Shown piece by piece: positions 1,310-5,442 of a stretch of DNA of 64,000 nucleotides. Numbering within the stretch: the stretch's first letter is position 1; every line of letters starts with the position of its first letter. A model generated the notes under the pieces. It did not search any database, was not told the DNA's origin, and saw nothing but the letters and a program-made list of their open reading frames with translations. Source of the stretch: a virus (taxonomy: Duplodnaviria; Caudoviricetes); the IMG/VR virus record IMGVR_UViG_3300036762_000065, positions 32,001-96,000 of that record; one strand, given 5' to 3'. A program made the translations under genes and the position numbers.

Positions 1310-2664
1310 GAGTGTTAGTATCGACAAGTGCAGCACTGAGTGCCGCTGCTAAAAACAAAATACAGAAAGCAGATTGGTTTGACTATAAAGGCAGAAAGGT
1401 ATTGTTTGATAATCACCACAAGTCTTATGATATAGACATAGCGAAAGGTGATAAAGTAGGGTTTATCCCTAATTCCAACGGCACTTACACTCTGTTGCAT
1501 TCAGACGATCCTGCAATCTATTTCAAAGTGTCTTCCGCAGAGCATGATGCGGTAGTGTTAAAATCTGTTCCTTACTACGGGCTAGTGCAAAAAGTACCGG
1601 TAATCTCTGATAAAAAACTTCTTACCTTAAGTTTTTCAGATAGGCATTCCGCAGTACTTTTAAATTCACTTACTGTAGCTAAATTGAAGCAGTTGTGTGA
1701 GTTGCGCGGTATTACAGGCATTTCTAAGAAACCGGAACTCGTTAGAGCCTTGGTCAAAGCAGACAAGACAGGCACTAAGAAAACTGCCGCAGCTCCTGCT
1801 AAAAAAGCCAACTCGACTCGAAGAGGAAACGGTAAAGTAGAGATAACTACACCGAAAGCACCTTTAACCAGACCCTCTAAACCTGTTCAACCTAAGACAG
1901 TTAAACCTAAGGTAAACCCTTCTGAACTCAAAGAAGGTGTTATTGTTAGTGTTAAGATAGAGGATGAAACTGTACAAGCAACCGTTGTAGAAGATGCTGT
2001 AGGAAGTAGAGTTCGTGTTGTTGCGAAAAAAGGTAGCACTAAGAATATGCCTATTTTTGTTGATATATCTAGTATCAATCGCATTGTTCCGCAAAAGGTT
2101 AAAGAACTAACACCGCTACAGAAAGAAAAAGCAGACTATGACACTATGCACGAATTAACAGGTGCCGGAACCGTTGTACGTCATAGAGGTGTGGAATATG
2201 TTGTTGTTTACAAACACAGTCGAAAGGCTACGAGTAAAACACCGTTCGACAATAAACTTGCCCTTGTTCCGATAGATGAAACTAAACCGTTGATAACATT
2301 GGACGTAAATAACTTAGAACACTTGCAAAGTATGTCTATTGATACTTTGAGTTTAGGTAAGTATAACGAGTACAAAGGAATTTTTGATAGGCGTAAATCT
2401 GAACTCGATGAAAAATCCAATGCCGCTGCCGCTATCAACAACGCACAGATTGCGAAGTTCGGTGTAAAAGAAGGAGATTCTACTTCATATCGCTTTCCAA
2501 ACGGTGCTGTGCAATTTGTTATTGTCCGAGCTATAAACTACGAAAAAGGTTTGATAGCAATAAGAGAAGGGTCTAAACTCAGATGGTTGCCAGGTAAGAA
2601 CATAGAGTATATTAAACGTACTGGTGACACTGAAATAAGCATGGATGGTAGCATGGGAAAGTAA
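1306..2664 (+). CDS. Multidomain basic protein with SAP/HeH-like DNA-binding motif and KOW/SH3-like domains; putative head-cargo protein; zero-frame product of a frameshift gene
   Basis: SD AAGGAG. LNSLTVAKLKQLCELRGITGISKKPELVRAL at 1660-1752. K/P/A-rich linker. Ends in G GGA AAG TAA. Confidence 0.65.
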   Translation: MRVLVSTSAALSAAAKNKIQKADWFDYKGRKVLFDNHHKSYDIDIAKGDKVGFIPNSNGTYTLLHSDDPAIYFKVSSAEHDAVVLKSVPYYGLVQKVPVISDKKLLTLSFSDRHSAVLLNSLTVAKLKQLCELRGITGISKKPELVRALVKADKTGTKKTAAAPAKKANSTRRGNGKVEITTPKAPLTRPSKPVQPKTVKPKVNPSELKEGVIVSVKIEDETVQATVVEDAVGSRVRVVAKKGSTKNMPIFVDISSINRIVPQKVKELTPLQKEKADYDTMHELTGAGTVVRHRGVEYVVVYKHSRKATSKTPFDNKLALVPIDETKPLITLDVNNLEHLQSMSIDTLSLGKYNEYKGIFDRRKSELDEKSNAAAAINNAQIAKFGVKEGDSTSYRFPNGAVQFVIVRAINYEKGLIAIREGSKLRWLPGKNIEYIKRTGDTEISMDGSMGK

Positions 2665-2703
2665 GTCCCGCCTCTGAAGAACTAAAGCGTACAGACGGCG
2701 GGA
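2655..2703 (+). promoter_or_regulatory. Programmed -1 ribosomal frameshift signal (slippery heptamer GGGAAAG + stimulatory hairpin)
   Basis: G_GGA_AAG at 2655-2661 is in the zero frame directly before TAA. Hairpin TCCCGCC-TCTG (2666-2676) pairs with CAGA-c-GGCGGGA (2692-2703). The -1 frame is open from 2652 to 4490. Confidence 0.8.
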
Positions 2704-4490
2704 AGGTAAAAGATATAGTCGGGTTATCTTGGGAAGTGCATAACTACATTACACCCGGCACTAAGGAAGTCAGTGTACGTAAAGTAGAAGGAGTGCGTCC
2801 TGATGGTAAGTATTACGTTTCAGAAACAGGCACTAACGTACAAGATATCCTAACGTATGATTATATACTGGATATTAAGAAGAAAGATGAAGCTAATAAT
2901 GAGTACCGTGCTAAACAAGATGTCAAGAATGTTGCTGAGACTAAGCGCCTAGAACAAGAGTCCGTTAAACATAACGACATAGATGGATTTAAGTCTAATG
3001 CAGGAAAGTTGGAGTTAGGTAAAGCGTTGAAGGTACTAAACTCATTACGTAGGTTCAATGGCCAACCTTTGACTATAAAAGAATTTATACGTAATCGTAT
3101 TAAGTCCGGTAGCTATGTAGAGACTGACAGTAAAGGTAATCGCGTATTGATGAATAAAGATGATACGTTTATGGACATTAAAGGTACCACTAAGATAGGT
3201 ATGGATTACGCTGAGTATCTGTACAGCAAGACCGGTAGAGGAAAACAAGCACCTGATTCAGGATCGTTGAAAGGTTTCCTTGAAAGTAAGAATCCATTAG
3301 CACAGGAATATGCATATAACCAACTTACTAAGTCTGGTAAATTCTTAGGTAGAGAATGGGATTTAGTAATTGACTATATAAACGAAGCTATGAATAATCG
3401 TTTAGGTAGAGTTGAAGGTGAAGGTAATTCTCGTAAGTTAATTGTAGCTAAACGTAAGGAGCCTATAACTGTTGCCGAACTTGGTAATATAGGTATGGAT
3501 TACGCTGAGTATCTATACAACCTTACTGACAGAGGTAAGCAAGCTGCTCGCCTAAAAGAGAATAAGGATGCAACAGTACCTCATGTTGATCCAGCTAAAT
3601 CTACTGGTGAGTATATGTACGGGTTGTCCTTAAGACCATTCGGAATAGCAACTCAGCCTGCAGGGCAGACTGGTTACATACCGCCAGAAGAGGTTCCGCG
3701 AGACATTAAAGATAAGTTCGATGCTCGTACCTATCGTCACGGTATCGTAATATATCCGCAAAAGCTATCCGAAAGAGATGCTGATCGTTTCGACTTGATT
3801 GATTTCTCTGTAACCCCTTCTGATGAAAAGTGGCTTGCATTTGTAGAACTTATTAAAGACCTTAAGGAGTATGATTATACCATTACACAGTTTATTGATG
3901 AATTCATTAAACCTAATGGTGAGAGCGTTTCCGAGAACCCTCTTTATAAGAACACTAAGCCTAGTGTTACTATCATTATGGATTATCTGTCTAAGAATGG
4001 TTATCCTGGAAACATGAATGGACTTATCTCTCTCTTTACAAAGACCGGCAAGCAGACACAAGAAATGTCTATAGACGACTTTACACAACAAGTAAAAGAT
4101 GCTTATTACAAACAGTTTCCTAGAGGATGGATAAAAGGAGGACTCGAAAAGAGTATAGGACAGTACGTTGCACTAACGTTTGGTATACAACCGAAAGAGA
4201 AGTGGTTTAACGGATATGAGTCGAACGACCCTGCTCACCAATCTATCATTATACATGAGGTTAAAGACAGTAAGTTCTTGCCTAAGATAGTTGCTGACAA
4301 CGGAAGTACAGGAAGTACAATGTTGATTAAGCCTAAAACTCCTAATCTAGCTTACAGTAGAATAAAGCTTGGATACAGGAAGAAAACAGGAACCCCGGAA
4401 CAAGTCCTAGATCACATAAAGAAATACTTTGTACAAATGCGTAAAATAGTCGATCTAAATCGAGACAAATTAGCCCACGATATAGATTAA
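2661..4490 (+). CDS. -1 frame extension of ORF 1306 (track ORF 2736..4490): polyvalent module with a duplicated ~98-aa domain and a DarA_C-like domain
   Basis: GTG 2736 has no clear SD and the frame is open back to the slippery site. IGMDYAEYLY occurs twice. YMYGLSLRPFGIATQPAG...RHGIVIYPQKLS...RFDL (3612-3803) resembles DarA C-terminal domains. Confidence 0.7.
   Translation, partial: VSPASEELKRTDGGKVKDIVGLSWEVHNYITPGTKEVSVRKVEGVRPDGKYYVSETGTNVQDILTYDYILDIKKKDEANNEYRAKQDVKNVAETKRLEQESVKHNDIDGFKSNAGKLELGKALKVLNSLRRFNGQPLTIKEFIRNRIKSGSYVETDSKGNRVLMNKDDTFMDIKGTTKIGMDYAEYLYSKTGRGKQAPDSGSLKGFLESKNPLAQEYAYNQLTKSGKFLGREWDLVIDYINEAMNNRLGRVEGEGNSRKLIVAKRKEPITVAELGNIGMDYAEYLYNLTDRGKQAARLKENKDATVPHVDPAKSTGEYMYGLSLRPFGIATQPAGQTGYIPPEEVPRDIKDKFDARTYRHGIVIYPQKLSERDADRFDLIDFSVTPSDEKWLAFVELIKDLKEYDYTITQFIDEFIKPNGESVSENPLYKNTKPSVTIIMDYLSKNGYPGNMNGLISLFTKTGKQTQEMSIDDFTQQVKDAYYKQFPRGWIKGGLEKSIGQYVALTFGIQPKEKWFNGYESNDPAHQSIIIHEVKDSKFLPKIVADNGSTGSTMLIKPKTPNLAYSRIKLGYRKKTGTPEQVLDHIKKYFVQMRKIVDLNRDKLAHDID
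3195..3514 (+). repeat. 26-nt exact direct repeat (3195-3220, 3489-3514) marking a 98-codon domain duplication
   Basis: ATAGGTATGGATTACGCTGAGTATCT occurs twice, 294 nt apart. Confidence 0.9.
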
Positions 4491-4560
4491 ACGTTTAACT
4501 GAAATTGTAATTTAACCATATGTCTATTTCGACACAAACAAAAGATTAGGAGATTAGTAA

Positions 4561-5442
4561 ATGGCTTCTTTAAAAAACGCCAGAAGTGCAGTGAATAATC
4601 TAGTAGCAGATTTAGGTAGAAGTAAGTCTGCCAACGTTATTGTTCAAAGTGCTGAAGAATTAAACGACGGGTTTGCTCGCGTCATTGCAACCGTAGCGCA
4701 TGTTAACGGGAGTCGCGGTACTAAGGCTTCTTTGATGGATGCACTACGAGCGAAGTTTGATAATAAACTTTTTCCTGTAGAGAACTCGTTTTCTGTATTG
4801 TCTTCCAACCCGGTTAGCGATACAGTTACAGGCATTCTTAGTGTTGCTCCGCAAGCAGTATCCTACACAGAAGACTTGCAAGGATTTAAAATACTTGCAG
4901 GTAATATGTTCATGGACGAAGAAGAAAACTTGTGGGCATTACGTAAGACAGAAGCCGGGGACATACTTGTTAAAAGCTTTGGTAAAGATGATGCAGAGGT
5001 AGTTAGCGGCCTTTTGAATTCCGTCTCTTCCTCTTACTCAGGAGCCTACGAGTCTGTAGCTAGTGTACAAAATACAAATAACATGTTAAATTCTATCTGT
5101 GGTGGTGATTACGTCACTTATGTAGAACCTCACAGTAGTAAGGTATCTTTCGGCGCTGTTGTTGCCTCTGTAGATAACGCAGACGGTACAGATAGCGGTA
5201 AGTTATATGTTGCTGATATAGATTGTGGACCAGCGCAATTTGTTGATAGGCGTATGGTACTTGCTTCATGGGACGGTGTTGAAGTAGAAGACGATGTTGA
5301 TGCCAATAGTGAAGTGGCCACTTCTTCTGCTAATGCGAAGAGTCCTGAGGAGATTGCTGCTTATTACCAGAAAGTTTTTCAGAGAAACGACGGTTATTTC
5401 CAGAAGTTTATGGAACGTTGGAAAAGTCACTCGTTCATGTAA
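4561..5442 (+). CDS. Hypothetical protein, probably virion/head-associated
   Basis: SD AGGAG; TAATTT motif upstream; terminator downstream; several S/A-x-S motifs. Confidence 0.55.
   Translation: MASLKNARSAVNNLVADLGRSKSANVIVQSAEELNDGFARVIATVAHVNGSRGTKASLMDALRAKFDNKLFPVENSFSVLSSNPVSDTVTGILSVAPQAVSYTEDLQGFKILAGNMFMDEEENLWALRKTEAGDILVKSFGKDDAEVVSGLLNSVSSSYSGAYESVASVQNTNNMLNSICGGDYVTYVEPHSSKVSFGAVVASVDNADGTDSGKLYVADIDCGPAQFVDRRMVLASWDGVEVEDDVDANSEVATSSANAKSPEEIAAYYQKVFQRNDGYFQKFMERWKSHSFM

Follow-up and report, generated by a model that had tools for sequence, protein, structure and literature searches.

In the genome of an uncultured jumbo phage (IMG/VR record IMGVR_UViG_3300036762_000065; Duplodnaviria, Caudoviricetes), an open reading frame (ORF1) ends on a slippery heptamer, and a second long frame without a good start codon (ORF2) opens behind it in the -1 frame. 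How is ORF2 translated? The stretch analysed (the window; 64,000 nt) comprises nt 32001-96000 of a virus record that is complete at 241,706 bp, carries direct terminal repeats and was obtained from wastewater and activated-sludge metagenomes. The original prediction for this locus had proposed a programmed -1 frameshift. Judged from the sequence, frameshifting is the best-supported explanation, but initiation at an ATA codon (2715), a rival considered below, had been overlooked.

ORF1 (1306-2664, + strand) encodes a protein of 452 aa (50 kDa, isoelectric point 9.7) behind a strong Shine-Dalgarno (SD) sequence (1294-1302; duplex -9.2 kcal/mol). Its final codons are ATG GGA AAG TAA. The heptamer G_GGA_AAG (2655-2661) thus lies, as had been described, in the X_XXY_YYZ register, immediately ahead of the stop codon (TAA, 2662-2664). 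ORF2 (2652-4490, + strand) remains open for about 612 codons from the previous stop in its frame (TAG, 2649), in agreement with the limits first given for it. Shifting at the heptamer would add 609 aa to ORF1, and the predicted fusion has 1061 aa and a mass of 119 kDa, with the junction ...GSMGK-VSPASEE. The heptamer was correctly identified as the frameshift site of the lambda G/GT genes (PMC3296357). It is rated highly shift-prone in Escherichia coli (PMC5009743).

A GC-rich stem-loop of 11-12 bp (2666-2703, + strand; -16.8 kcal/mol) begins 4-5 nt past the heptamer and is a candidate 3' stimulator. Its presence, and the absence of a U-tract after it on the + strand, were confirmed. Read in the -1 frame, the stem-loop codes for a linker predicted to be disordered, and rare codons are used. 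Synonymous recodings of the same peptide give less stable folds than the stem (p=0.0004 when genome codon usage was applied, p=0.011 with uniform codons), and equally stable folds were found in only 4 of 2952 coding 48-mers. A wider window of 86 nt was ordinary when compared with dinucleotide shuffles (z=-1.0), and the signal is therefore the local stem. An internal SD about 10 nt upstream of the heptamer, which is an optional stimulator, is represented by just a weak purine stretch (2643-2649). No credible match to a known RNA family was obtained at the junction. Other roles for these sequences were considered. An intrinsic terminator on the + strand was rejected, as the stem lacks a U-tract and was not called; on the minus strand a short T-rich stretch does follow, and no minus-strand gene requires a terminator there. 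Transcriptional slippage was also rejected, the junction having no long run of A or T.

The arrangement was compared with the rest of the genome. ORF1-ORF2 is the only pair in which the downstream frame runs open through the stop of the upstream ORF and has no ATG, GTG or TTG for at least 60 nt. Among 345 in-register slippery heptamers, the site at 2655 ranked second in the stability of its downstream structure; the first lies at a gene end where the -1 frame has six codons. The 2655 site alone combines a stable 3' structure with a long -1 frame. In-register X_XXA_AAG occurs at a rate of 4e-4 per codon (4 in 10,000 codons). This rate, multiplied by the rate of such stems (1.4e-3) and about 320 gene ends, gives a chance expectation of about 2e-4, a rough and after-the-fact estimate. 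GGGAAA is depleted in register throughout the genome (3 seen, 13 expected) and is not depleted in the other two registers (11 against 9.8, and 15 against 7.8). Little weight was given to this depletion because in-register GGGTTT is likewise depleted; a bias at G|GG codon junctions may contribute.

If ORF2 were translated separately, it would have to begin at a start codon of its own. The first ATG, GTG or TTG of the -1 frame is GTG 2736, the codon from which ORF2 was annotated. Gene callers report an ORF2 of 584 aa or 565 aa, with the first domain clipped in either case. The SD of GTG 2736 is indeed as poor as had been stated (duplex -3.2; the median for the genome is -5.1). Moreover, the first domain of ORF2 appears to begin upstream of this codon. 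The sequence VGLSW (2718-2732, + strand), 5' of GTG 2736, represents a motif of the form h-G-x-x-W, which begins a beta domain in ten homologues, six of them found by a DNA pattern independent of the motif. An ungapped profile (position-specific scoring matrix) supported the codons upstream of GTG 2736 (p=0.0055). Pairwise alignments to P0004, L094, L090 and L104 gained from these codons (shuffle p 0.0025-0.08), and alignments to ORF2 homologues extend to codons 5' of ATA 2715. In the structure model, the first strand begins ahead of the GTG with a predicted local distance difference test (pLDDT) score of about 85, and the residues encoded by the stem are disordered. Taken together, the upstream motif, the profile, the pairwise alignments and the model indicate that GTG 2736 is probably too late to be the start of ORF2. 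Independent initiation there, the outcome that would have spoken against a frameshift, is thus disfavoured, which leaves frameshifting or initiation at ATA 2715.

The orthologues of ORF1 show which part of the locus is the add-on. Four were identified, namely P0002, P0010, P0009 and a gene in locus L016. The first two and the gene in L016 stop no more than a few residues from the ORF1 end and have no ORF2 downstream. P0009 also reads Gly-Lys at this point and runs on in frame into an unrelated module of 130 aa. Since the orthologues end at the same place, ORF1 is complete and ORF2 is an add-on. A 7-nt direct repeat, AGCATGG (2638-2644 and 2650-2656, + strand), flanks the short tail by which ORF1 extends past the end of its orthologues, and is possibly a scar left by the insertion of ORF2.

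The same stop codon, heptamer and stem are present in a second strain of 98.8% identity, whose assembly came from other runs. The junction showed no gap and no indel in four runs, covering assemblies of 2018 and 2020 runs and the two strains. As independent assemblies of two strains share the same junction, an assembly indel, also named at the outset as an outcome that would refute the proposal, is excluded. The sole difference between the strains at the junction is at 2708; it is synonymous in the -1 frame and lies outside the stem. ORF1 differs by 26 synonymous and 4 non-synonymous changes. ORF2 differs by 11 synonymous and 2 non-synonymous changes and is free of lesions over its 612 codons; purifying selection acts on part of ORF2. 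With a single exception, the ORF2 changes fall 3' of 4183. The 5' two-thirds of ORF2 cannot show selection, as the strains are identical there: from 2709 to 4183 there are 0 differences over 1475 nt, compared with 30 in the 1359 nt of ORF1. This identical stretch was read as a recent exchange or sweep covering most of ORF2.

ORF2 itself is, from sequence comparison, a mosaic of polyvalent-protein modules, three of them of separate origin. The first (codons 23-194; 2718-3233, + strand) is an unnamed module in which the beta domain is followed by a long helix and an alpha/beta domain ending in DYAEYL; its structure model has a pLDDT of 77. In the homologues this module is internal to proteins of up to 2700 aa, and wherever the beta domain heads the module, the module is internal. 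The homologous proteins are of DarA_N, InPase or ART type, and several carry DarA_N, DarA_C, InPase or PF18760 or are encoded in operons with such domains. The h-G-x-x-W/DYAEYL module recurs in large phage and plasmid polyvalent proteins (for example at L020 2862-10448, at L104 1-6531 and in L094) and has no Pfam model. A degenerate second copy of the DYAEYL domain was recognized at 3264-3515 (+ strand). The next part (codons 320-463; 3609-4040, + strand) consists of DarA_C and a helical region and is 36% identical to BN7874_225 of phage NCTB. Within it, the DarA_C match (PF18789; 3609-3800, + strand) covers 64 aa with 36.7 bits against a cut-off of 27, and corresponds weakly to residues 377-469 of P1 DarA. 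DarA_C was present in 1 of 7 related genomes. The C-terminal domain (codons 467-604; 4050-4463, + strand) is kin to small stand-alone proteins of phages GAP32 (gp011), CBB and XaC1 (phrog_21515). DarA_N (PF18788) was not matched in ORF1 or ORF2, although the same profile does match P0004. No catalytic, effector or peptidase domain was identified in ORF2, and fold searches gave no clear match; for its first 200 aa the best Z was 5.1, with nothing over background, and the ESM Atlas returned no usable match for either end. Thus the description of ORF2 as a DarA-like polyvalent module holds for DarA_C and the polyvalent modules, and fails in that neither DarA_N nor a dar operon is present. ORF2 is no DarA, as the likeness is confined to one small domain. 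The proposed anti-defence payload has just the 64-aa DarA_C match as its basis.

The carrier protein also differs from what had been supposed. In ORF1 an N-terminal leader is followed by a KMPT-N domain, a weak SAP segment, a basic linker and several small SH3/KOW/Tudor-like barrels. KMPT-N (PF20294; aa 23-86, 1372-1563, + strand) is a clear match (E=1.8e-14; 54.1 bits against a cut-off of 28.9). The SAP-like helix-loop-helix (PF02037; aa 119-153, 1660-1764, + strand; E=8.8e-4) falls below its cut-off (19.3 against 23.9 bits), forms two helices in the structure model and is missing from the orthologue P0010. A leader-tagged KMPT-N protein with SH3/KOW-like barrels is therefore a better description of ORF1 than a SAP-motif DNA-binding carrier; DNA binding is plausible given the basic pI of the predicted protein. 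In the ORF1 model, the likeness to Tudor, KOW and SH3 repeats is local, and hence no function follows from it. The name KMPT was found in no paper of the literature searched. Jumbo phages related to PaBG, Lu11, Alexandra and NCTB carry 2-6 KMPT-N copies per genome, with variable C-terminal parts.

The leader (1306-1335, + strand) is of the clade-wide type M-h-x-h-S-h-S/A, which unrelated proteins have in common, and is a candidate capsid-targeting tag. The pattern was found at 10 of 402 ORF starts and at none of 1097 internal Met codons; about 2 of the 10 resemble false matches to signal peptides. KMPT-N proteins carry an S-x-S-A motif at the N-terminus, and PaBG gp83, which is on the list of virion bands, has a leader-like start. 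Short N-terminal capsid-targeting signals are known from the internal proteins of T4 and from P1 DarB (PMC9024508). No candidate start of ORF2 shows the pattern. BN7874_225, the NCTB homologue of the DarA_C part, stands alone as a gene and starts with the leader. A leader on the stand-alone homologue and none on ORF2 suggest that such modules need a leader in this clade, which would here be supplied by the shift. In NCTB (L005 7971-11413) three adjacent genes, BN7874_225, 224 and 223, start with the leader; BN7874_224 has a terminal barrel that resembles the last domain of ORF1 by eye and was not significant by BLAST.

These observations can be combined into the following scheme. The stem-loop would slow ribosomes finishing ORF1 while tRNA-Gly and tRNA-Lys are paired with G_GGA_AAG. 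A minority of ribosomes would re-pair on GGG AAA, bypass the UAA and synthesize the fusion, the main product remaining the 452-aa ORF1 protein. The lambda site supports a shift of about 4%, and the efficiency here would probably be higher with the stem. It is probable that frameshifting at 2655-2661 is a selected mechanism, and likelier still that some -1 shifting takes place at the site. A programmed -1 shift that evolved recently in this lineage is the best explanation of the sequence data. The remaining steps are weaker. ORF1 may be a leader-tagged head or cargo protein encoded in a variable slot of the late-gene cluster. ORF2 may be a piece excised from the interior of polyvalent proteins of the DarA-operon type that landed out of frame behind ORF1; having neither a leader nor a good start, it would obtain the leader through the shift. 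The fusion would be packaged at low copy, so that not every carrier is lengthened. Chances that the leader directs packaging appear evenly balanced. Any role of ORF2 after injection, whether in host takeover or in anti-defence, is guessed from the usual company of its modules, and for anti-defence it must be called doubtful. Equally tentative is the wider idea that the phage adopts captured effector modules through a -1 shift, parking them behind a head-cargo gene, borrowing its leader and setting the dose of an injected anti-defence protein of DarA type.

Several results weigh against a selected frameshift or against the packaging steps. The spacer, at 4-5 nt, barely reaches the usual range of 5-9 nt. 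In further pairwise tests, 3 of 7 alignments showed no gain from the codons upstream of GTG 2736, and in profile hidden Markov models (HMMs) these codons add nothing (85.3 against 85.3; 23.0 against 25.4), a lack of gain that is due to an insertion of 8 residues. A start at ATA 2715, where the SD is fair, would keep the first domain entire. None of about 30 other KMPT-N genes of this and related genomes has, at its end, a slippery site followed by a stem and a long -1 frame, which implies that the signal is young and local. The expectation that heptamer and hairpin would be conserved in homologues was not borne out: the signal was seen just in the two strains that are 98.8% identical and in no diverged orthologue, the four known orthologues having no ORF2 or a different, in-frame extension. 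Diverged loci carrying both ORFs were not found in viral_contigs, metagenome_contigs or phage records, from which near relatives may be missing; a cluster member, P0006, was rejected as an unrelated locus. As the strains are identical over 2709-4183, their agreement says little on selection at the junction. Finally, no KMPT-N protein is among the 14 bands identified from PaBG virions, a list of low sensitivity, and packaging of the carrier is for this reason no more than putative.

Translational coupling would make ORF2 a separate product. Ribosomes stopping at the end of ORF1 would melt the 5' arm of the stem, expose the SD at about 2700-2707 and initiate at ATA 2715, the heptamer being incidental or a minor leak. 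The elements for this are present, as an SD-like AGGT just past the stem is followed by the in-frame ATA (2704-2717, + strand); the SD duplex of -7.3 is equal to that of the gene at 4561, and the spacing is 7 nt. The SD is partly buried in the 3' arm, and the ATA stands just ahead of the motif heading the first domain, the residues before it being predicted as disordered. ATA is, however, a very poor start codon, and an ATH or CTG codon with an SD this good is expected by chance in some 5% of stretches of 28 codons. Coupling leaves unexplained why a lambda-type heptamer occupies exactly the last two codons of ORF1 and why alignments reach 5' of the ATA, and its product would have no leader; we regard it as unlikely. 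Initiation at GTG 2736 (584 aa) or downstream, with the stem as an ordinary element of mRNA stability or processing, is favoured by the choice of the gene callers, by weak SDs at a tenth or more of the starts in this genome, and by profile HMMs that are unharmed by a cut at the GTG. Its weak SD lies in a partly paired region, and such a start removes the h-G-x-x-W motif and the beginning of the predicted strand and gives no leader, so that this origin of ORF2 is distinctly improbable.

The offset between the frames may have arisen instead by a natural loss of one base in an originally in-frame ORF1-ORF2 fusion, or in a gene starting at ATG 2653, that became fixed in the lineage. ORF2 would then be silent or rescued by incidental slippage, no signal having been selected. 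In keeping with this, P0009 has its in-frame, Gly-Lys extension at the same point, one base added in the G or A run would join the frames, the SD of ATG 2653 is moderate (-4.9), and the strains are identical over most of the 5' part of ORF2. But the stem is far stabler than the encoded peptide requires, the 612 codons of ORF2 are lesion-free with an 11:2 synonymous excess, and the ORF1 stop falls where three orthologues stop. A base loss is thus no likelier than coupling, and with rescue by slippage it merges into the frameshift explanation. An indel introduced by sequencing or assembly into a single continuous gene has nothing in its favour beyond the one-base offset itself; with the same gapless junction in the 2018 and 2020 run assemblies of two strains, its probability is negligible. 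Frameshifting at the heptamer remains the preferred reading.

The proposed mechanism was compared with known recoding systems. As in lambda gpG/gpGT (PMC3296357, PMC5009743), the same heptamer lies near the end of the first ORF, giving a short major and an extended minor product. Unlike those genes, ORF1 encodes no tail chaperone and is not located between the major tail and tape-measure genes, a strong 3' stem is present, and the signal is confined to one lineage, in contrast to the G/GT shifts, which many phages have conserved. In T3/T7 gene 10A/10B, Lactobacillus phage A2 and the Ig-like extensions of Listeria phages A118, A500 and PSA, a mobile out-of-frame domain is likewise placed on a fraction of the copies, and, as here, related genes carry extensions in frame or none (PMC5009743). 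Those systems put surface domains on capsid or tail subunits; the KMPT-N protein is a putative internal cargo carrier, and its extension consists of 609 aa of polyvalent-protein modules. In one model (PMC5009743), Ig-like domains inserted out of frame come to be expressed by frameshifting, and the supply of a leader to ORF2 by the shift would be a parallel. With E. coli dnaX and the IS3 family (IS911), the site shares an A_AAG end read by tRNA-Lys(UUU) and a simple stem-loop on the 3' side, about 11 bp long and closed at the foot by an A:U pair. It differs from them in its P-site Gly codon, the 4-5 nt spacer, the weak upstream SD-like stretch, and in that the shift extends the product rather than truncating it. 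The mechanism would work like the recoding of lambda G/GT or T7 10A/10B, the locus being a member of neither gene family.

ORF2 resembles P1 DarA and other polyvalent proteins (PMC12810830, PMC9024508, PMC5512222) in its DarA_C domain and in an N-terminal module from proteins of DarA_N/InPase/ART type. It differs in having no DarA_N, no hdf/ddr (hdf/ddrA/ddrB) operon and no identified catalytic domain, and in that its modules would be joined by recoding rather than within a single ORF. In P1 DarA the N-terminal part binds the inner capsid surface, and residues 383-639 are unresolved (PMC12810830). ORF1 is like the KMPT-N proteins (PF20294) of PaBG-, Lu11-, Alexandra- and NCTB-like phages in having KMPT-N at the N-terminus and a variable C-terminal part; what sets it apart from the other 30 or so KMPT-N genes is the slippery site at its end, with the stem and the long -1 frame behind it.

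The genes around the locus match, and are syntenic with, those of Pseudomonas phages PaBG, Lu11 and HRDY3, Erwinia phage Alexandra and phage NCTB, and the major capsid protein is 65% identical to that of PaBG. ORF1-ORF2 is flanked by the head-tail connector region and by a conserved gene of 293 aa, its neighbours being core genes of the clade. This slot is variable: it is empty in HRDY3 and Alexandra, holds a peptidase gene in PaBG and one or two KMPT-N genes in closer relatives. In a related phage (G001; L016 4920-7898) it is filled by two tandem KMPT-N-like genes. In L011 a further KMPT-N-like gene is inserted ahead of the HNH gene, and the second strain (L012 10065-10772) has an extra 235-aa gene, absent from the window strain, between the 286-aa and HNH genes. 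Three more KMPT-N genes are present in the genome (G000:C1 77028, 188902-189096 and 201551-201742), one with an SprT-like HExxH motif, one with a KTSC-like tail and one with a long acidic tract. In all four loci the 293-aa gene is preceded by TAATTTA and, 2-5 nt on, ATGTC (window 4510-4530; L011 9895-9920; L018 1768-1785; L019 after 6533), and several KMPT-N genes are followed by TGTAAATA. TAATTTA/ATGTC and the latter sequence are candidate late promoters of the PaBG/Lu11-like clade. Upstream, ORF1 sits in the -1 frame of a small membrane-protein ORF (953-1309), which contains A_AAT_TTA in register (1288-1294) four codons before its end; this heptamer is probably incidental because ORF1 has its own strong SD and ATG. 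Whole-genome tRNA calling gave a single tRNA, a 95-nt tRNA-Ile(GAT) on the minus strand (G000:C1 176958-177052), and the phage encodes no tRNA-Lys able to read AAG directly, a point in favour of the shift.

Known -1 shifts of phages are mostly found in tail chaperones or produce surface extensions of capsid and tail subunits, and none on an internal head protein or a polyvalent protein was found in the literature searched, which was limited in coverage. The arrangement at 2655-2661 is thus apparently an undescribed use of a known mechanism. If the proposal is true, it would represent a third use of phage -1 shifting, on an internal protein that is injected, observed shortly after this use arose, the recoding signal having arisen in one lineage while the orthologues have no extension or an in-frame one. 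It would also mean that annotation of such phages can miss a real product. A cassette of 85 nt holds the signal, and the locus would also give indirect access to the leader shared across the clade as a packaging tag.

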